NCBI GenBank assembly: GCA_900556975.1 | Contig: USQZ01000003.1 | Span: 5,310 to 69,309 of the forward strand | Source: an uncultured Clostridium sp. | GTDB taxonomy: Bacteria; Bacillota; Clostridia; TANB77; CAG-508 | Length of the DNA stretch: 64,000 bases | Direction: 5' to 3' | Shown: piece by piece, positions 3,463 through 55,792 of the stretch | Numbering within the stretch: position 1 is the stretch's first letter | Layout of the letters: the number at the start of each line of letters is the position of its first letter | Program-made: the position numbers and the translations under genes | The notes under the pieces: model-generated | The model's input: the letters and a program-made list of their open reading frames with translations, nothing else | Database searches by the model: none | Told to the model about the DNA's origin: nothing

Positions 3463-3536
3463 ATTTATGTAACCCAATTGAATTGTATTTCTAATTACTA
3501 AGAAATACTTATGCATCTATGAAAGGAGTTTTCATT

Positions 3537-4904
3537 ATGAAGAAGACATTTGTGTTACTTACTGAGGCAACATTGTCGTCTGAAAAAGCCACTCTTAACT
3601 TTGGTTCTGATAACGACATTGTCGTTCCGTTAGCTGTCGTTGAGAGGATTTACCGGTACGATAAGTCACCAGAGAAGGCTAAAATAGCCAGCAAGTTTGT
3701 TGACTACATTTCTACATTCTCTATGAAGGATTTGCTTTCTTCGAAAGGAGTTAAGCAGAGCAACGGCTCTTCTTTGAGAATCGTGGACTGCGAAACAATT
3801 TCTCCGGAGGTAAACTCACTTCACAACATGACTGAGCTTTACAAGAGAGCCTTTCAGGTTTGCTTGGATCTGGCTAAGTCAAGCAAGTACCCAGTAGTCT
3901 TGATTTCACAGAATCCGTCTGTACGTTTAAAGGCAGAAAAACTTGGTATCAAATCACAGGAATTTAAGGACGAGATTTTTCCTCTTCCTCGTGATCAGTA
4001 CAAAGGTCGTGCAGAAGTGTTTGCAGCGAAATCAGCCATCGACAAATTGTATGCCGACAGATCTCTGTCGATCAATGCAATTTATCAGTACAATAATATT
4101 GCATGGCATGAGAACATGTTTGTTACGATTTCGTCAGAAGGCTCTTCCACTATTGCAAGATATACAGATGGTAAGCTTGTACCGTTGATGTATCAGGACA
4201 ACAAAGCGTTTAAACCAGATAACGCTGAACAGAAAATGTTCATGGAATGTCTGCTCGCACCTCCTGACATTGCACCTTTGGTTATTGTTAAAGGCGGAGC
4301 TGGTACAGGAAAGACTTACTGTGCTTTGGCTGCAGCGTTGCATTCTCTTGCTTCATATGGCCCTGTGAGTACCTATGAGCAGATTCTTGTTGGTGCTCCT
4401 ACTGTTACTATCGACGAAGATTTAGGTTATCTTCCTGGTGACATCAATGATAAGGTTAGTCCTTACATTAATGGTGTGCAGAATAACCTCATTGAAATCT
4501 TCAAGCAGAATGGTGAGAACATTACAGGCGGAAAGGAAAAAGTAACCAAGAAAGAGTGTAAGGAAACTGTTAATATGCTGTTTGAAAAAAGTCTCATTGA
4601 GATTCAGGCGATAGGTTTTCTTCGTGGTTCTTCTATCGCGAACACTTTCTACTTCCTTGACGAAGTGCAGAACATCAAGCCAGAAATTATGAAGGACATC
4701 ATTACTCGTTTGGCAAGAGGTTCTAAGCTTGTTTTGGCAGGTGACCCAACACAGGTAAATACTCCTGGCCTTAATGAAAGACGTAACGGCCTGGTGTATG
4801 CATCTGAAAAGTTCAAAGACATTAGCAGATGCTGGCAGATTGAGCTTGACAGTAAGAAAACAGTAAGATCAGAGCTGGCTATGATTGCACAGGAGATTCT
4901 GTAG
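3537..4904 (+). CDS. PhoH-family ATPase with PIN-like N-terminal domain (YlaK/PhoH2 architecture)
   Basis: Walker A GGAGTGKTYCALAAAL, Walker B FYFLDEVQN, then LAGDPTQ. The N-terminal roughly 130 aa has PIN-like topology. ATG 3537 follows AAAGGAG. G+C is clearly above the flanks. Confidence 0.8.
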   Translation: MKKTFVLLTEATLSSEKATLNFGSDNDIVVPLAVVERIYRYDKSPEKAKIASKFVDYISTFSMKDLLSSKGVKQSNGSSLRIVDCETISPEVNSLHNMTELYKRAFQVCLDLAKSSKYPVVLISQNPSVRLKAEKLGIKSQEFKDEIFPLPRDQYKGRAEVFAAKSAIDKLYADRSLSINAIYQYNNIAWHENMFVTISSEGSSTIARYTDGKLVPLMYQDNKAFKPDNAEQKMFMECLLAPPDIAPLVIVKGGAGTGKTYCALAAALHSLASYGPVSTYEQILVGAPTVTIDEDLGYLPGDINDKVSPYINGVQNNLIEIFKQNGENITGGKEKVTKKECKETVNMLFEKSLIEIQAIGFLRGSSIANTFYFLDEVQNIKPEIMKDIITRLARGSKLVLAGDPTQVNTPGLNERRNGLVYASEKFKDISRCWQIELDSKKTVRSELAMIAQEIL

Positions 4905-8470: not shown

Positions 8471-9151
8471 TTATTTAACGCTTTTACGTCTTTGCAATAC
8501 TATGATTGTTAAGAATACAAATAATAGAATAAATGTTACATACCCTACTACTTCTTTTAATGAAATAATTCCTTGTGGAAATTTTTGATACATTTGAACT
8601 AATGAAAACATTTCTATAACACCTTGATAATTTTGTAAAAATGATATTATCAAGAAAAATCCAATTGATACAACTGCTGCTATTACTTGATTTTCTGTGA
8701 TTGATGATGCAAACATACCAAAAGATATGTAAGACATTGCAAGTAGTAAAAATCCTAGCATTGCAACTAAAGGTTCTGTTAAATTAACATATCCGAAATG
8801 TCTTAATATTCCATAATATACAAACATGAATAACATTCCTATTACAACAACTAATGATGCTGCAAAAAATTTACCAAATACTATGCATGTTATACTTTTA
8901 GGAGAAGTCATTAATAATTGGTCTGTCCCTGTTTTCTTCTCTTCTGCAAACATTCTCATTGTTAATACGGGAATTATGAATGCAAGTACTACTGTGCTGT
9001 CCCATATAATATATTCAAAATTTAAATAACCTGATGCGAATGTATATGTGTAAAATATAAAGCTAACTACAGCAAGGAAAAGTCCTATAAATATGTAACC
9101 TATAGGTGTAAAGAAATAGCTTTTTAATTCTTTTTTTATTATTGCTAACAT
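8471..9151 (-). CDS. ABC-2 family transporter permease (GldF-like)
   Basis: 226-aa polytopic membrane protein. Its start overlaps the stop of the ATPase gene. Confidence 0.7.
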   Translation of the reverse strand: MLAIIKKELKSYFFTPIGYIFIGLFLAVVSFIFYTYTFASGYLNFEYIIWDSTVVLAFIIPVLTMRMFAEEKKTGTDQLLMTSPKSITCIVFGKFFAASLVVVIGMLFMFVYYGILRHFGYVNLTEPLVAMLGFLLLAMSYISFGMFASSITENQVIAAVVSIGFFLIISFLQNYQGVIEMFSLVQMYQKFPQGIISLKEVVGYVTFILLFVFLTIIVLQRRKSVK

Positions 9152-43258: not shown

Positions 43259-43807
43259 TTATTTTTCAAATATACTTAATATTTTTGCCACAGCATAAAT
43301 AATGTTTGTACATTTAGTTTTTGCAAAGTTTTTTCCTAAAGCCTTACCACCTACTGTAATTGAGGCAACAAGTGCACTCATTATGAATTGGATGTCAAAG
43401 CTCAATCCTATGCTTTGTGTAATTTTTACTGTTAACATGGCACTTATCGCACCACTAAGTACACCGCATATATCACCGATAACGTCATTACATATATTAG
43501 AAACTTTTGGCGCTGATCTAATTAATTTTATGGCTGTTTTTGCACCTTTTACTTTCTTTGACGCCATTGCGTGGAACTCTTCTTCTGTTGCACAAGTTAT
43601 GGCAACACCAACAATATCAAATACTACACCAATTAATATAACGATGATAAGTACGATTAAAGCTGGTAATGTTGCTAATCCATTTATACTTGTTGTTGAT
43701 ATGTATGAGAATGTCATTGACAATATAAATGTTACTATAAATATTGTGAAGAACCATTTAATAGCTTCGTTTTTCGGGTTCTTGTTTTTTTCGTTCTTTT
43801 TCTTCAT
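43259..43807 (-). CDS. oapA: small four-TM protein with DxxxD in TM3; candidate OLE-associated protein A
   Basis: 182 aa (about 20 kDa) with four hydrophobic segments. NDVIGD places Asp108 and Asp112 within TM3. Lies immediately downstream of the ncRNA candidate and has its own promoter. Confidence 0.5.
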   Translation of the reverse strand: MKKKNEKNKNPKNEAIKWFFTIFIVTFILSMTFSYISTTSINGLATLPALIVLIIVILIGVVFDIVGVAITCATEEEFHAMASKKVKGAKTAIKLIRSAPKVSNICNDVIGDICGVLSGAISAMLTVKITQSIGLSFDIQFIMSALVASITVGGKALGKNFAKTKCTNIIYAVAKILSIFEK

Positions 43808-43904: not shown

Positions 43905-44547
43905 GAAAAAAGAATTTATATAAAACAGACACTTTCATCTGATTGTATAAATTCTTCACTATAATTATTATCGAATTAAAGATGGTAGAAATTTAAGTAA
44001 ATTTTACGGTATAAGGTCTAGCAGAATTTCTCTACTTTTTACTAAGCATTACTGCTTAGCTGTTTCCATTTAAAAAAGCATCCCTTAAAAGTTTCGGGCA
44101 GCTAGATCGCCACTAAAATCCGTACCTTAATCCCTAAATTTCCAAGCTTCTCGATTGAAACGAACATTCTAGAAGTTTTCCTTAATGTACTTGATCTATT
44201 ATTAGTTTCTTTTGCAATAATGATTTCATAGCCTTTCAAGAGAAAACGTGGCCGCGTCTTTTCATGAAATAATGACTAATCCCAAGATTACCACTCAAAA
44301 CAGATTTATCGCATACAATTCGATATGTACACTCAAAATAGATTATATCACAACAAGTAGAACTGGTGATAACGAATATAGGAATCCAAATATATGCCGT
44401 TATATTCTATCCTAAATTCTTTACTTCCCATACCCACGCAAAACTGGCATTTTGCGCATGACATAAGAAACTTTATCTAATAAATCATGTGTGGATTTTT
44501 AGCCCCACCTTCATAATAGATAGTACAACTAGAATAATGCACCATCG
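43905..44547 (-). ncRNA. large structured ncRNA candidate of about 640 nt, most consistent with OLE RNA
   Basis: No ORF of 60 aa or more on either strand across 43850-44770. A sample line has about 40% G+C against about 25% in the flanks. Bounded by a near-consensus promoter and a hairpin plus T6 (gaatttata...tataaattc TTTTTT). Followed by the four-TM DxxxD gene. Confidence 0.55.
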
Positions 44548-44553
44548 AGTTTT

Positions 44554-44582
44554 ATTATACCAGAATCCAAAAGTAAAGACAA
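44554..44582 (-). promoter_or_regulatory. sigma-A-type extended -10 promoter for the ncRNA candidate
   Basis: Minus strand reads TTGTCT (44582-44577), 17-nt spacer ending in TGG, then TATAAT (44559-44554). Confidence 0.6.
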
Positions 44583-50098: not shown

Positions 50099-50800
50099 TT
50101 ACCTTTGATATAATTGTTCTAGTTCTAATGTTGTTAATTCTCTGATTCTTCCTGGTGTTAAATCTTTAGGTAACTTTAGGTTTCCCATTTGGGTTCTATG
50201 GAGTTTTGTAACTTTGGCACCGTAGCATCCGAACATTCTCTTAATTTGGTGATATCTTCCTTCTGTTAATGTGACTTCTGCTGTGTATTTACCTGTTATT
50301 ATCATTTCTGAGCTTTTGCATTTTCCGTCTATTAGTTCTATTCCTTCTTTAAATCCTTTTTTCATTTCTTCTGTTACAGGAATGTCTATTGTTACTTCGT
50401 ATTTTTTTGATACGTGTTTTTTAGGTGCTAGTATGTTATGGGCAAATTTTCCGTCATCTGTTATTATCATTAAACCTGTTGTGTTTTTGTCTAGTCTTCC
50501 TGCTGGAAATAGTTCTCTTTTTTGATATTCTTGTGGAACTAGTTCTAATACTGTTTTATCTTTATTGTCTTTTGTTGCTGAGATATATCCTTCTGGCTTA
50601 TTTAGTATTAAATATATGTTGTCTTTTATAGTTATTGGATTATCATCTATTTTTATTTCTGATGAATATTTATCAATTTTTATGTCAGATTTCAATACTA
50701 TTTTGCCATCTACCTTTACTCTTTTTTGTTGTATAAGTTTTTTTACATCACTTCTCGAATAGTTCCCTTGTGATGATATTATTTTATCAATTCTTTCCAT
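50099..50800 (-). CDS. RsuA/RluB-family pseudouridine synthase with S4 domain
   Basis: GRLDKNTTGLMI and GRYHQIKRMF motifs, with an N-terminal S4-like segment. Confidence 0.85.
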   Translation of the reverse strand: MERIDKIISSQGNYSRSDVKKLIQQKRVKVDGKIVLKSDIKIDKYSSEIKIDDNPITIKDNIYLILNKPEGYISATKDNKDKTVLELVPQEYQKRELFPAGRLDKNTTGLMIITDDGKFAHNILAPKKHVSKKYEVTIDIPVTEEMKKGFKEGIELIDGKCKSSEMIITGKYTAEVTLTEGRYHQIKRMFGCYGAKVTKLHRTQMGNLKLPKDLTPGRIRELTTLELEQLYQR

Positions 50801-50860: not shown

Positions 50861-50901
50861 TATAAAACAGAAAATCGCCCTTAATTACTGGCGATTTTCT
50901 G
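50861..50901 (-). terminator. intrinsic terminator after sigma paralog 1
   Basis: cagaaaatcgcc-cttaattact-ggcgattttctg with a T-run on the minus strand. Near-identical core to the hairpin at 51925-51954. Confidence 0.75.
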
Positions 50902-50918
50902 CGATACATTTACTACAT

Positions 50919-51683
50919 TTAATTTTCGATTACATTTAAGATTTTTGCCACGAATGGCATTGACTCTGGGTCGCCCGGAACTTTGATTTTAAGTTTCTCA
51001 CCATCATAATTGATAGTGAATTTAGGCACAGCCTCTCTGAAGTCAATTTTTCTCATAACTTCATTCATCTGTTCTTCAGTCCCGGTGCAGGTGATTTCTA
51101 CCATGCTGTCTTTTATAGACACATGATACGGTCCTGTTACTTCTTTGTCGAAATTAATTAATTTTTTTAATTTTTTAATTGCTTTTTTCTCTATACGAGA
51201 TGCAAAACTTTGAGAAACTTTGAACTTTTCTGCAAGCTCATCTTGTGTAACTCCGCCTGCTCTGCAAAGCAAAACGTAACGTTCCCGTGAGCTCAAAGTG
51301 TTCATAATATGCTGTAACACCCTCTCAAGATACTCTGTGATTTCTCCTTTCTTTTCGAAATCCTGCCGCTCATCTGCAATTGTGTCAGCGACATGAACTC
51401 TAGTGTCATCTTGCTTTCTTATTGGCGAATCAAGAGAAATATCATCTTGATACTTATTTTTTCTCTTGAGTTCTTGCCACACTTCGTTTTGTATGCATAT
51501 TATGGCATACGTTGCAAACGAAATGTTCCTTGATTGGTCGTATGATGCCGCAGCCTTGATTAATCCCATGCTTCCTGCCTGTACAAGATCATCCATGTCC
51601 TGGTAATTTACTGCATATTTTCTTGCAATAAAAATCACCAAACCATAATTGCTTGTTACTAATGATGTACTCTTCTCATTCAT
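50919..51683 (-). CDS. sigma-70 family factor (sporulation SigE/K/F/G-like regions 2 and 4) with extra C-terminal module, paralog 1
   Basis: Region 2 DLVQAGSMGLIKAAASYD...FATYAIICIQNEV. Region 4 HTH LSSRERYVLL...VSQSFASRIEKKAIKKL. Then a roughly 65-aa extension ...PESMPFVAKILNVIEN. ATG 51683 follows GGAGGAAAG. Confidence 0.8.
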   Translation of the reverse strand: MNEKSTSLVTSNYGLVIFIARKYAVNYQDMDDLVQAGSMGLIKAAASYDQSRNISFATYAIICIQNEVWQELKRKNKYQDDISLDSPIRKQDDTRVHVADTIADERQDFEKKGEITEYLERVLQHIMNTLSSRERYVLLCRAGGVTQDELAEKFKVSQSFASRIEKKAIKKLKKLINFDKEVTGPYHVSIKDSMVEITCTGTEEQMNEVMRKIDFREAVPKFTINYDGEKLKIKVPGDPESMPFVAKILNVIEN

Positions 51684-51741
51684 GTAATCTTTCCTCCGTT
51701 GTCTGTTGTAATATATCATTAATTAATAGTATCTACTAATT

Positions 51742-51770
51742 ATTTTACCATTTTTTCTTTTCTTTTTCAA
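51742..51770 (-). promoter_or_regulatory. sigma-A-type promoter for sigma paralog 1
   Basis: Minus strand reads TTGAAA (51770-51765), 17-nt spacer ending in TGG, then TAAAAT (51747-51742). Confidence 0.5.
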
Positions 51771-51814
51771 CGTTAGAATTAATCCTCAGTATAACATGGG
51801 TGTTATCATTAAAA

Positions 51815-51913
51815 GAACAAAAGCAGACATTAATAGCATTTATACTGATTATAACATTTTAAAATCCGCGTCTTTGTTCGCGCCCAGAAATTTGCAAAGC
51901 AAATTTCTGGCAT
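51815..51913. repeat. intergenic two-hairpin repeat, family A, copy 3
   Basis: gaacaaaagcagac...tccgcgtctttgttc followed by gcccagaaatttgc-aaa-gcaaatttctggc. Confidence 0.75.
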
Positions 51914-51916
51914 TGT

Positions 51917-51954
51917 ATAAAAAAGGAAATCGCCATTAATTACTGGCGATTTCC
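51917..51954 (-). terminator. intrinsic terminator after sigma paralog 2
   Basis: ggaaatcgcc-attaattact-ggcgatttcc, then TTTTTT on the minus strand. Confidence 0.75.
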
Positions 51955-51964
51955 ACTCGACACT

Positions 51965-52744
51965 TTATTTTTCTACTACTCTAAGGATTTTTGCAATAAA
52001 CGGCAACGATTCCTGATCTGCTGGCACTTTGATGACAACATTTTCTTTATAATACTCGACTAAAAAACTTTTAACATACAACTTGACGTCAATTTCACAA
52101 AGGACATTGTGCATGAGTTCTTTGTTTCCATCAAGACTTAAACATATGTCTCCGTTTTTTATTTTTACTTTATACCGTCCATCAGTACAAACATCTGCCA
52201 TCATAGATACTCGATCAAGGTTATCACTAGCTTTGCTTCCAATTCGTGAAACAAAACTTTGGGAAATTCCTAAATCAGCTGCAATTTCTTCCTGATTTAT
52301 TCCCCCAGCTCTGCATAACACGATGTATCGTGCTCTGCATTCAAGTTTGTTCATTATGTAGTTAAGCACTTCTTCGAGCATCTCAATGCATTCTTTCTGT
52401 TCCTCGAAGTTCTGCTTCTGATCAGCAATCATATCGCCAACCACAAGTTTTTTCTCTTCGTTGTTTTGTTTAATTGGAGCTTCAAATGAAAGTGTAGGTG
52501 CATTTCTGCTCTTACCTCCCTGTCTTCGAAACTCCATTAAAATTTCGTTTCGAATACACTGAGCAGCGTACGTTGTAAACTTGATGTTCTTTGTTTCATC
52601 AAATCCATTTGCGGCCTTAATCAGTCCTATAGAACCAATTTGAAACAAATCGTCTCTTTCCTGATTTTCTTTGACAAGGTCGTTTACTACTAGTCCGACT
52701 AAACCTAAGTTTTGTTTGACTAGTTCATCTGTCCGTCTTTCCAT
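51965..52744 (-). CDS. sigma-70 family factor with extra C-terminal module, paralog 2
   Basis: DLFQIGSIGLIKAANGFD...FTTYAAQCIRNEI. HTH ISQSFVSRIGSKA. Extension ...QESLPFIAKILRVVEK. Confidence 0.8.
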   Translation of the reverse strand: MERRTDELVKQNLGLVGLVVNDLVKENQERDDLFQIGSIGLIKAANGFDETKNIKFTTYAAQCIRNEILMEFRRQGGKSRNAPTLSFEAPIKQNNEEKKLVVGDMIADQKQNFEEQKECIEMLEEVLNYIMNKLECRARYIVLCRAGGINQEEIAADLGISQSFVSRIGSKASDNLDRVSMMADVCTDGRYKVKIKNGDICLSLDGNKELMHNVLCEIDVKLYVKSFLVEYYKENVVIKVPADQESLPFIAKILRVVEK

Positions 52745-52797
52745 AATGGTCCCTCCATTGTAAATAAAATATCTTGTTAATAAAGTACCCTGTAGTT

Positions 52798-52826
52798 ATT
52801 CTATCACATGTTTTATGTAAATTCAA
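52798..52826 (-). promoter_or_regulatory. sigma-A-type extended -10 promoter for sigma paralog 2
   Basis: Minus strand reads TTGAAT (52826-52821), 17-nt spacer ending in TGA, then TAGAAT (52803-52798). Shares TGTGATAGAATA with the paralog 3 promoter. Confidence 0.5.
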
Positions 52827-52844
52827 GACTTATGTAAATAAGTG

Positions 52845-52876
52845 AAAAGACTGTCGATATTCATCAACAGTCTTTT
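52845..52876 (-). terminator. hairpin terminator after sigma paralog 3
   Basis: aaaagactgt-cgatattcatca-acagtctttt. Confidence 0.6.
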
Positions 52877-52916
52877 TAGACGTTTTATTCTTTTTCTGCC
52901 TCCTCTTTTTGTTCTT

Positions 52917-53693
52917 TTAGGGTAACTCGTCCAATGCGTTCAAGACCTTCGCTATAAAATGCATCGAATCTAATTCCGCTGGTAAACTTATGCAAGCTTT
53001 TTCATTATCATAAGTAATTTCAAATACAGGAATATAGTCTGGGAAATCTATTTCGTATATCCTACTTTCTATTTTCTCTTGCGTTCCATAGAAACTAATA
53101 AACATCTTATCAGAAACTACTTTAATATTATATTTTCCAGAATTTTTTTCATACGTTGGAGAGTTCATTCTCGCTCTAACTCTTTTGCCGGCTTTCGTTG
53201 TTATCCGTGATACATAGCTTTGTGAAATATTTATTTCCTCGCAAATATCTCTTTGCGTCATGCCTGCTGCACATGATAGAGCAATGTATCTCTCTCTTGG
53301 TGATAAATAGTTAATGATTATGTCCATCACTTCTTCAAAAGCTTCGTTATCCAAAAAAGCTGCTTCGATATTAGCTTTTTCATCTTCAATCAAATCGCCA
53401 AGAACTAAATTTTCTCTTTCTTGCTCTTTGATTGGTGTTTCTATCGAAACGTCTTTACTATATCTTTTTCTTCTTCGAAACTCCATGAAGATTTCGTTAT
53501 TGATACACCGGCACGCATATGTTGCAAATTTGATTTTTTTACTTTCATCAAAACTTTGTGCTGCCTTGATAAGTCCAATAGTACCAATACTAAACATATC
53601 TTTAACTTCTTCAGGAAAAATAGCTATTTTTTTTATGCAATCGCCAACCAGTCCTAAATTGCCTTCAACCATTTGTTTAATCCGATCGTCCAT
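52917..53693 (-). CDS. sigma-70 family factor with extra C-terminal module, paralog 3
   Basis: ATG 53693 follows GGAAAGGAG (MDDRIKQMVEGNLGLV...). DMFSIGTIGLIKAAQSFD...FATYACRCINNEI. HTH ISQSYVSRITTKA. Extension ...LDSMHFIAKVLNALDELP. The track start at 53783 lies inside the predicted promoter. Confidence 0.8.
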   Translation of the reverse strand: MDDRIKQMVEGNLGLVGDCIKKIAIFPEEVKDMFSIGTIGLIKAAQSFDESKKIKFATYACRCINNEIFMEFRRRKRYSKDVSIETPIKEQERENLVLGDLIEDEKANIEAAFLDNEAFEEVMDIIINYLSPRERYIALSCAAGMTQRDICEEINISQSYVSRITTKAGKRVRARMNSPTYEKNSGKYNIKVVSDKMFISFYGTQEKIESRIYEIDFPDYIPVFEITYDNEKACISLPAELDSMHFIAKVLNALDELP

Positions 53694-53754
53694 TGTGGTA
53701 TACTCCTTTCCTTCGAAATAAAACATCCAAGTAATAATTTTACTCGTGGTTTCT

Positions 53755-53783
53755 ATTCTATCACAGTTTGCTTTATTTATCAA
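53755..53783 (-). promoter_or_regulatory. sigma-A-type extended -10 promoter for sigma paralog 3
   Basis: Minus strand reads TTGATA (53783-53778), 17-nt spacer ending in TGA, then TAGAAT (53760-53755). Confidence 0.5.
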
Positions 53784-53859
53784 TCAATTTATGTTAACTT
53801 TTGTATACCACTAATTTTATAAATTATCATATTCTTCATCTGTTACTGGTTCACACCAT

Positions 53860-54099
53860 TCATTTTTCGTATTTTCTCCTGGATTTTTTGAATAGAGTCA
53901 TATAATCTAACAATATTTCTATCGTCATTCCTGCAGATCTCATGCATTTTATAAATTCTACCCATTTGCAAGACTCTTCATCAAAATCTCTAATACCAGA
54001 TTTTGTTCGAGGTACTTCTGGTAGTAAACCAATTCTCTCGTAATATCTAAGAGTATCTTGAGTTATGTCATACTTTTTACTAACCTCAGCAATTGTCAT
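53860..54099 (-). CDS. MerR-family HTH protein, unusually short (79 aa; dimerisation helix and effector region missing)
   Basis: MTIAEVSKKYDITQDTLRYYERIGLLP is a MerR HTH. The ORF ends shortly after an A6 run (ttcaaaaaatcc). Confidence 0.6.
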   Translation of the reverse strand: MTIAEVSKKYDITQDTLRYYERIGLLPEVPRTKSGIRDFDEESCKWVEFIKCMRSAGMTIEILLDYMTLFKKSRRKYEK

Positions 54100-54327
54100 A
54101 TTCTCACTCCCTTCTTATGTCAAAAATGAATATTATATTTTTAACATCCTTATATTATATAACACTTAGAGTTTACTCTAAGTCAATAGTTTTTTATAAT
54201 ATTTTTATTTTTTAACATAAATGTGCAAAACATTGTTTCTGTCAATAGTAAAAAATAAATTTGACATATTTCTTGCTTGTTGATAGACTGATTGTTATAT
54301 TAAGATGTTTCACAAGGAGAAGTGTGT

Positions 54328-55039
54328 ATGAGAAAAAAATAGCTGTTTTTTCCGATATTCATGGAAATCTTCAAGCTATATTAGAAGATATAAAAAAGGA
54401 ACCTATAGATAGTATAATCTGCTTAGGGGATGTTATAGGAATTGGTCCTAATTCTAAGGAAACTCTACAATTAATAGAAGAGAATAAAATTGAAATGATT
54501 CTTGGAAACCATGAAATATATTTTTTAAATAATTTCAAAAAAATGAAATTTTTGAAGCTGGAAAAAATCATACGGAACATCATAAATGGATAGCAAGTTT
54601 GTTAGATAATAATGATAGAGCTTTTTTATCTAATTGTAACTTATCATAAGACTTTGAAAATTCTAATCTCATATTAAGTCACTTTTTTCTAAAAGATTCT
54701 ATTTCAACAGGTGTTTATCCTTTTTTTGAAATTGATATAAGAAAAAAAGAAAATCAAAATGATGTTAGAATACCAAATAAAAGAAAATATAATTTATTTG
54801 GCCACATACATAATAAATTCTACTTTGAAAATGGCGAAAATAAATATTATTGTTTAGGATCTAGTGGCTGTGTCCATGATGATAAAACTTTTTATAATGT
54901 AATTTATGTTGATAATAAAATTGTTGAAATAAAAGAAAAAATAATTAAATTTAATAGGGATGCTTTTGAAAGCAGTGTTCAAAAAATTAATTATCCTGAA
55001 AAGCAAGAAATTTATAATAAATTTTTTAAAATATTATAA
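54328..55039 (+). pseudogene. calcineurin-like metallophosphoesterase (YfcE-like), disrupted
   Basis: Motifs VFSDIHGN, LGDVIG, GNHE and later GHIH lie in different frames. ATG 54328 (7 nt after AAGGAGA) runs into TAG after an A7 run. There is a frame change at the A6 run 54562-54567 and an in-frame TAA at 54647-54649. Confidence 0.7.
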
Positions 55040-55087: not shown

Positions 55088-55792
55088 TTATATTAGTTTT
55101 TCTTCTTTTTTATTCTGATTATCATCTACCGAAAAATCATTCTTAAAAAACCATTTATATGCTCTGTTTGCGATTGCTTTAGTTTCAAAATAATCAATTC
55201 CACCTCCAGCAACTGCTCCTACAACTGGAACAACCCTAGATAAATTAATAATTCCTGTCGTTCCTGCTTTAGTAATAAATGTAAATCCTACTTTTTGATT
55301 TATTTTAATCAAAGCTTTTCCTGGTATTTTCTTAATTGTAGCATTTGTTAGTTTTATTCCGAATTTAATACCAGCTTGCTTTATTACATCAGTTACTGCC
55401 ACTCCTGCCAAGCAAGCATATACTAAAGTTTGAACTTGATCAGATTTTAAATCATAACCTGCAAGATAAGCTATACAAGCTATCATTCTCATTTGAACAT
55501 ACAATACACTTCCGACATTAACTGGAATAGTTACAGGTAATGTTATTATTCCACCAAATCCTGTTAAAAAACCTGATGTTGTACATTTAACGACTTGATT
55601 TTTAATCATTGCCTTTGCTGCCTTATTATTATTTGTTTCTTTGTCCAAATAATTTTTAGCAAATTCTTCTATTGATGGACTTACTTTTGGTACACCATTT
55701 AATGCTTTCTCATAACAATTATTTAGCACTTTCATAATGTCTTCCTGTGTAACTAGTTTCTTTTTATTTTCTTCTTTTTTATCTTCTTTCAC
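55088..55792 (-). CDS. EcsC-family protein
   Basis: GTG start 10 nt after AAAGGAG. The pattern TSGFLTGFGGIITLPVTIPVNV...MIACIAYLAGYD is typical of EcsC. Confidence 0.65.
   Translation of the reverse strand: MKEDKKEENKKKLVTQEDIMKVLNNCYEKALNGVPKVSPSIEEFAKNYLDKETNNNKAAKAMIKNQVVKCTTSGFLTGFGGIITLPVTIPVNVGSVLYVQMRMIACIAYLAGYDLKSDQVQTLVYACLAGVAVTDVIKQAGIKFGIKLTNATIKKIPGKALIKINQKVGFTFITKAGTTGIINLSRVVPVVGAVAGGGIDYFETKAIANRAYKWFFKNDFSVDDNQNKKEEKLI

Follow-up and report, generated by a model that had tools for sequence, protein, structure and literature searches.

What is the stretch of protein that follows region 4 in three neighboring sigma factors of an uncultured Clostridium sp., and what might it add to proteins whose known relatives end there? 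The three genes, here called g1, g2 and g3, stand in tandem at positions 50,861 to 53,783 of the window, the 64,000-nucleotide stretch of contig USQZ01000003.1 (assembly GCA_900556975.1) that was analyzed. Each encodes a sigma factor of the sporulation type with a tail of some 75 residues directly after sigma domain 4, and on structure prediction this tail, the module, is a real folded domain. It appears to be uncatalogued, being absent from the domain and structure libraries searched, and nothing but sigma factors carries it in the data searched. The reading that we favor, and to which we give a probability of about one half, is that g1, g2 and g3 are alternative sigma factors in a lineage-restricted cluster of ancient acquisition, and that the domain fused to them serves regulation or protein interaction.

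The sigma factors and where their known domains end

The open reading frames (ORFs) of the three genes, their sigma domains and the modules are placed as follows; pLDDT is the predicted local distance difference test score and pTM the predicted template modeling score.

50919..51683, (-) strand: g1, sigma factor paralog of 254 aa from MNEKST (ORF; Pfam r2 4.9e-16, r4 3.9e-9)
50922..51155, (-) strand: g1 C-terminal module, residues 177-254 (profile envelope; no library match)
51965..52744, (-) strand: g2, sigma factor paralog of 259 aa (ORF, Pfam, NCBIfam; AlphaFold whole-protein pLDDT 80.3)
52517..52723, (-) strand: g2 sigma region 2, residues 8-76 (Pfam PF04542, 9.9e-14)
52202..52408, (-) strand: g2 sigma domain 4, helices at residues 113-181, Pfam r4 at 141-176 (Pfam and AlphaFold)
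51968..52177, (-) strand: g2 C-terminal module, residues ~190-259, predicted beta-beta-alpha-beta-beta-alpha (AlphaFold pLDDT 84.7, pTM 0.70)
52917..53693, (-) strand: g3, sigma factor paralog of 258 aa from MDDRIK (ORF, Pfam, NCBIfam)
52926..53159, (-) strand: g3 C-terminal module, residues 179-256 (profile envelope; no library match)

Two of the genes have an alternative upstream start, an ATG at 51719 for g1 and a TTG at 53783 for g3. The original prediction, made from the sequence alone, had given lengths of 255, 259 and 259 residues; this holds for g2, whereas g1 and g3 are each a residue shorter than stated, the stop codon having probably been included in the count. The proteins are alignable end to end at pairwise identities of 37-43 per cent (mean column identity 64 per cent), and the motifs that had been quoted for sigma region 2, the linker, region 4 and the tail are all present in their alignment.

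Assignment of the sigma domains to the SigE/K/F/G type, also made beforehand, is upheld by the profile searches. Sigma70_r2 (PF04542) is matched in all three proteins at E values from 1e-10 to 5e-16, and Sigma70_r4 (PF04545) at 36.3, 22.4 and 23.7 bits in g1, g2 and g3, against a cut-off of 24.1 that only g1 passes; the four-helix sigma-4 domain is modeled by AlphaFold at pLDDT > 85. Nothing else in Pfam matches the three proteins, and the Sigma70_r4 match stops at residues 174-176. The top NCBIfam models are SigK and SigE, with E values of 1e-29 to 1e-41 and 102-141 bits against cut-offs of 252-349 (g1 scores 120.7 bits against the SigK subfamily model, cut-off 252). These models are exhausted by residue ~172-178 (model positions 222-238 of 227-241), so that the canonical sigma factor does end before the tail, as had been claimed, and 75-80 residues remain beyond it in each protein. 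The nearest solved structures by sequence are SigF, SigK and the N-terminal domain of SigE, and Foldseek with the full-length model likewise retrieves sigma factors. By domain content, then, g1, g2 and g3 are sigma-70 family proteins of the SigE/SigK type (group 3), with predicted binding to core RNA polymerase.

How far the proteins depart from named sigma families can be judged by comparison. From region 2.1 through region 4.2 they align with SigE and SigK at gapless length, and they have in common with them the region 2.4 motif CIxNEI(L/F)M and the region 4.2 helix-turn-helix ISQS(F/Y)VSRI. They differ in scoring far below the curated equivalog cut-offs given above, in running 75-80 residues past region 4.2 into a separate domain, in forming a fast-evolving tandem paralog array outside any sporulation gene context, and in lacking the N-terminal pro-sequence that SpoIVFB or SpoIIGA removes from SigK and SigE, since the model alignment starts at position 41-62 and the proteins start only 2-6 residues before region 2.1.

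Fusion of a regulatory C-terminal domain is reported for ECF41 sigma factors of the extracytoplasmic function (ECF) group (PMC3426412), and g1, g2 and g3 resemble ECF41 and ECF42 in that the sigma core has two domains, a C-terminal domain is fused to it and a cognate anti-sigma gene is lacking (PMC3426412, PMC7826278). They differ from ECF proteins in that their best models are of group 3; the ECF model PF07638 reaches 13-20 bits, below its cut-off of 21.1, and only the broad superfamily model TIGR02937 passes. The module matches no described ECF extension type (SnoaL-like, TPR, zinc-binding and others), and a conserved neighboring gene was not found for the module family. A second comparison is with SigI, where rsgI is encoded next to sigI. 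SigI occurs as multiple paralogs in Clostridia, has an unusual C-terminal domain replacing or extending beyond canonical sigma-4, and is reported to be partnered by the membrane anti-sigma factor RsgI (PMC6582324). In contrast, g1, g2 and g3 keep a canonical region 4, have no adjacent rsgI-type gene and carry a module that matches no family. Finally, their sigma part is 23-40 per cent identical to sporulation-type sigma genes on phage and viral contigs (the best phage family is PHROG 351), but no phage or viral locus searched carries the module, and the window genes lie on a chromosome, in synteny across species. On these tests the three proteins are thus neither ECF nor SigI proteins, and they fail the SigE/SigK equivalog tests in score, pro-sequence and C-terminal end. 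They are, as judged from sequence, intact alternative sigma factors within a small SigE/SigK-like clade that is absent from the family libraries searched.

The module and its family

When the tail is modeled alone from a 13-sequence alignment, AlphaFold returns a compact order of strand, strand, helix, strand, strand, helix (pLDDT 84.7, pTM 0.70). In g2 the predicted strands span residues 192-196, 199-205, 228-231 and 235-241 and the helices 208-217 and 246-258, and the same elements are seen in the full-length model. By eye the halves of the module are alike in sequence, each with an aromatic-x-V-x-I stretch, a hairpin and a polar N-cap followed by an amphipathic helix, which suggests an internal duplication of two beta-beta-alpha repeats. 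Between close orthologs the ratio of nonsynonymous to synonymous substitution rates (dN/dS) is 0.13-0.17 for the module and 0.23 for the whole gene.

The libraries searched with the module were Pfam (2025 copy), NCBIfam (June 2026), PHROGs, PADLOC, a PDB sequence profile, and Foldseek against PDB and against the viral folds of BFVD. No significant match was obtained in Pfam (searched to E 10; none at E <= 0.06), nothing was found in NCBIfam, PHROGs or PADLOC, and the PDB sequence-profile search was empty. Foldseek returned nothing significant from PDB (best E 0.009, template modeling (TM) score <= 0.58) or from BFVD (best E 0.003); the weak PDB neighbors are ACT-like domains, type III secretion chaperones, a pterin-dehydratase-like protein and ferredoxin-like designs. 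A published description of the module was not found in the open-access literature. The shared tail, which the original prediction had put at about 65 residues, is therefore unrecognized as claimed, at a length of about 75.

The module profile was run against 1.84 billion representative proteins and matched 109 representatives at E <= 1e-3, 26 of them at E <= 1e-10. Sigma70_r2 is present in every full-length module-bearing protein (85/85), with the module directly after the sigma factor, and in nearly all family members the module lies at about residues 180-265. About half of the family are long forms of 340-540 aa in which the module is internal; behind it come a linker of low complexity, in many cases acidic, and between one and three small winged-helix domains with weak MarR, AbiEi_4, HTH_24 and DeoR-type matches; the window genes are of the short form, without winged-helix domains. 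The module is thus not confined to the three genes but marks out a small family.

A true stand-alone module was not found among the 109 profile matches. Three candidates were considered and rejected: two are fragments whose contigs are 501 and 733 bp long, at ~1x coverage, and the third had been cut from its sigma gene by a scaffold N-run. As a control, a hidden Markov model of the module was run against six-frame translations of all 152 fetched loci, and the module was present in one of the 80 listed SigE/K-like loci of species-representative genomes and in none of 54 sigma-bearing viral contigs. There was no IMG/VR viral locus with the module among those scanned, no phage record covering at least 80 per cent of the protein, and no plasmid nucleotide match to the DNA; a word-indexed search with the module profile gave four fragments only. 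The window proteins themselves, and likewise near-identical members of their clusters, are recorded on >100 contigs each.

The contexts of distant family members are mixed, and no general conserved neighbor gene was found across them; the only neighbor to recur, and this in three related loci, is a protein whose N-terminus is PemK-like. Two loci (L085 and L088) are chromosomal housekeeping neighborhoods. In another (L089, 6169-7425 and 8640-10136) a long-form module sigma gene adjoins, by eye, a Mob/Pre relaxase, a Y-family DNA polymerase and an XRE regulator, and at least some members of the family therefore seem to ride on mobilizable elements. In a metagenome-assembled genome labeled uncultured Clostridia bacterium (L001, 993-1361), a 122-aa ORF that by eye encodes a Spo0E-type phosphatase lies ~0.9 kb upstream of a long-form member.

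Expression signals and history of the cluster

Three loci from relatives (L081, L084 and L086) have two sigma genes where the window has three, immediately upstream of rsuA-thrS, in flanks that are 89-96 per cent identical in DNA to the window and with ThrS 98-99 per cent identical. They allow the predicted expression signals of the cluster, listed here, to be compared between species.

53755..53783, (-) strand: g3 promoter-like site TTGATA-17 nt-TAGAAT with upstream TG (consensus match; kept in L081, L084 and L086)
52845..52876, (-) strand: putative terminator hairpin after g3 (-16.9 kcal/mol, z -5.4)
52798..52826, (-) strand: g2 promoter-like site TTGAAT-17 nt-TAGAAT with upstream TG (consensus match; kept in relatives)
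51925..51954, (-) strand: putative terminator hairpin after g2, then a T-run (-19.1 kcal/mol, z -5.7)
51742..51770, (-) strand: g1 promoter-like site TTGAAA-17 nt-TAAAAT with upstream TG (consensus match)
50867..50902, (-) strand: putative terminator hairpin after g1 (-19.4 kcal/mol, z -6.3; stem sequences in common with the g2 terminator)

A promoter-like pattern, TTGAxx-17 nt-TGnTAxAAT, is thus shared by the upstream regions of all three genes, strong hairpins lie downstream of each, and rsuA, downstream of the cluster, has a promoter-like site of its own. These predicted signals are consistent with separate transcription of g1, g2 and g3, in agreement with the earlier proposal of a promoter and a terminator for each gene. 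The g1 and g2 hairpins are near-copies, which indicates that the duplicated unit included the terminator. The 5' leaders (~60 nt) of g3 (53694-53752) and g2 (52745-52795) are matched at 8885-8950 and 9935-10000 of L081, and promoter sites and leaders are 80-88 per cent identical to that locus versus 72 per cent for coding sequence. The two leaders also have in common the pattern TTATTAnC..GAT.TTTTATTT.C, and as RNA they fold no better than shuffled sequence; the conserved leader pattern may be an operator or a translational signal.

The composition of the cluster is atypical, as had been estimated by hand. Across 50861-53783 the G+C content is 0.348, where the window averages 0.285; only 0.08 per cent of equal-sized sliding windows come up to 0.348, and G+C at third codon positions (GC3) is 0.36, 0.32 and 0.29 in g1, g2 and g3 against a mean of 0.18 for the genes of the window, where one other ORF is a comparable outlier. 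Orthologs in relatives have GC3 values of 0.22-0.30, versus about 0.13-0.20 for most neighboring genes. The site is variable: a further locus (L087), 93 per cent identical in nucleotides across thrS and the downstream gene, is without a sigma gene there. No integrase, transposase, tRNA or phage gene lies within 5 kb of the cluster in the window, its immediate neighbors being a truncated MerR gene and rsuA; an adjacent anti-sigma or phage gene is lacking, as had been stated. A donor was not identified.

The original prediction had taken these genes for a horizontally acquired cassette, and both the atypical composition and the variable presence agree with it. A recent, strain-specific island is, however, at odds with the two-gene version at the same site in 89-96 per cent identical relatives, which makes the acquisition older and shared. 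The cluster is probably an old acquisition from a higher-G+C donor by an ancestor of several related species. It would since have been shaped by local duplication, by unequal crossing-over and, under purifying selection, by fast evolution of its proteins.

Traces of such exchange are visible in the two-copy loci, where the upstream sigma gene of L084 is 95 per cent identical to g3 and the second gene (L084 10001-10780, L086 5873-6652) is a chimera, g2 in its N-terminal part and g1 in its C-terminal part (proteins P0004 and P0014). The crossover lies inside the region 4 coding sequence, and the segment that these loci lack by blastn is the following.

51284..52242, (-) strand: ~960-bp segment comprising the 3' part of g2, the spacer and the 5' part of g1, absent from the two-copy loci L084 and L086

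Other alleles (P0014, P0025) have g3-like patches in a g2 backbone. The chimeras and patches indicate that the paralogs exchange sigma-2 against sigma-4-plus-module segments. Substitution rates between the window and L081 are set out below.

Flanking genes: dN 0.009-0.05, dS 0.37-0.63
Sigma genes: dN 0.26-0.28, dS 0.9-1.5
rsuA: dN 0.089, dS 0.92 (raised too)

At the protein level the sigma genes have evolved 5-30 times faster than the flanks, and a high dN together with the low dN/dS of whole gene and module points to fast evolution under purifying constraint.

What the module may do

By analogy with ECF sigma factors that carry fused C-terminal domains, the module would gate sigma-4, or link it to a partner or ligand. 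It would supply the post-translational control or partner specificity that is normally given by a separate anti-sigma factor or co-factor. Given that the cluster has no linked anti-sigma or partner gene and that its promoters are housekeeping-like, control is most likely post-translational and carried by the fused domain. Several points weigh against this. That the module contacts sigma-4, RNA polymerase or some partner is proposed from the ECF analogy, and the promoter calls for g1, g2 and g3 are consensus matches only. The conserved positions of the module are mostly core residues, among which a conserved functional surface was not identified. The full-length g2 model has a pTM of 0.54, a sign of low inter-domain confidence, and a docking of the module is therefore not claimed. 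In addition, the internal position of the module in about half of the family, with a linker and winged-helix domains behind it, fits an adaptor at least as well as an inhibitory tail.

Such an adaptor would make an extra contact with RNA polymerase or upstream DNA, as an activator built into the sigma-4 end, and in the long forms it would place the winged-helix domains upstream of the -35 element. The presence of one to three of these domains after the module favors it, as do viral fold matches that include the T4 activator MotA (E 0.03-0.07). However, the MotA similarity is not significant, the window genes have no winged-helix domains, and the charge of the module is neutral to acidic (net -4, 0 and -6 in the window genes, family mean -1.7), which argues against a plain DNA-binding role; an adaptor is on balance distinctly unlikely. 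It might instead be expected that the module is an oligomerization domain, in which case homo- or heterodimers of the paralogs would be held inactive or coupled and there would be no action in cis on sigma-4. Several paralogs with related modules do lie side by side, and the best folds retrieved, weak as they are, are all alpha/beta sandwiches (ACT-like domains of bHLH factors, type III secretion chaperones and the pterin-dehydratase-like protein; TM up to 0.58), folds that form dimers. None of these matches is significant (best E 0.009), though, and the open face of the sheet, read by eye from alternate strand residues, is polar rather than hydrophobic, so that we regard oligomerization as unlikely while taking it seriously.

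Phage sigma factors that alter dormancy are known (PMC9429907), and the three genes could be remnants of a phage or mobile element, mimics of SigE and SigK that divert or block host sporulation, something reported of sporulation-type sigma factors encoded by phages. Promoter-recognizing regions that resemble those of SigE and SigK, a foreign-looking composition, a variable site and the one long-form relative beside a relaxase, a Y-family polymerase and an XRE regulator would all be in keeping with this origin. Against it, the window has no mobility or phage gene within 5 kb, no phage or plasmid record covers the architecture, and the cluster is stably syntenic in several species, which leaves the proposal improbable. 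The suspicion that the tails are artefacts, either misassembled fusions or functionless sequence of decaying pseudogenes, has nothing in its favor beyond the existence of one truncated allele in another strain (P0021). It is refuted by the recurrence of the same architecture in >100 independent assemblies and in 109 representatives with the module in the same position, as well as by the confident fold prediction and the purifying selection.

A more far-reaching form of the favored reading, that of a fused regulatory or interaction domain, is that the module is a new sigma-specific switch (a built-in sensor, an anti-sigma-like element or a partner-docking site) that would make SigE/K-type sigma factors one-component regulators. 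Paralog arrays that recombine and diversify rapidly would then generate new signal and promoter specificities in Clostridia. We offer this tentatively, as a possibility that is less probable than not.

Surroundings of the cluster and significance

Beside the cluster, rsuA (50099-50800) is unusually divergent between relatives, with protein identity of 85-91 per cent versus 98-99 per cent for ThrS and nucleotide identity of 78-82 per cent versus about 92-93 per cent for the thrS region, which suggests recombination or hitch-hiking that reaches beyond the sigma genes. Near-identical ThrS variants are numerous in metagenome assemblies. On the other side, the interval from the sigma genes to mutL/zip is variable and bears scars: at 53812-54600 a MerR-type gene has been shortened to 79 aa, against 126 aa in L081, the window has lost the cupin and flavodoxin genes that L081 has there, and a 110-aa ORF at 54261-54593 by eye resembles a metallophosphoesterase fragment. 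The same stretch holds a 234-aa protein (55088-55792, (-) strand) that matches the PADLOC candidate defense family PDC-S29 (E 3.7e-78). Farther away, a full-length OLE (ornate large extremophilic) RNA at 43966-44561, (-) strand (249.5 bits), is the sole Rfam gathering-level match in the window and has a 182-aa ORF just downstream (43259-43807). The strongest compositional outlier of the window is a 461-aa ORF at 3519-4904, (+) strand, by eye a PhoH-like ATPase with a PIN-like N-terminus, which is on the opposite strand to its flanking genes and may be foreign (G+C 0.415; GC3 0.42 versus the mean of 0.18).

Fusion of further domains to sigma factors is an established theme, whereas the domain itself appears uncatalogued, and as a new domain family it would join the catalogue. 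Most fused regulatory domains described to date are those of ECF (group 4) sigma factors, and a SigE/K-like clade would extend the principle to group 3, the more notably as the module is often followed by winged-helix domains. Clostridia possess orphan "SigK-like" sigma factors without a function (PMC2530871), on which the module family offers a handle. The locus is also a compact natural example of how regulators may diversify, through duplication, unequal crossing-over that swaps sigma-2 against sigma-4 plus module, and fast protein evolution.

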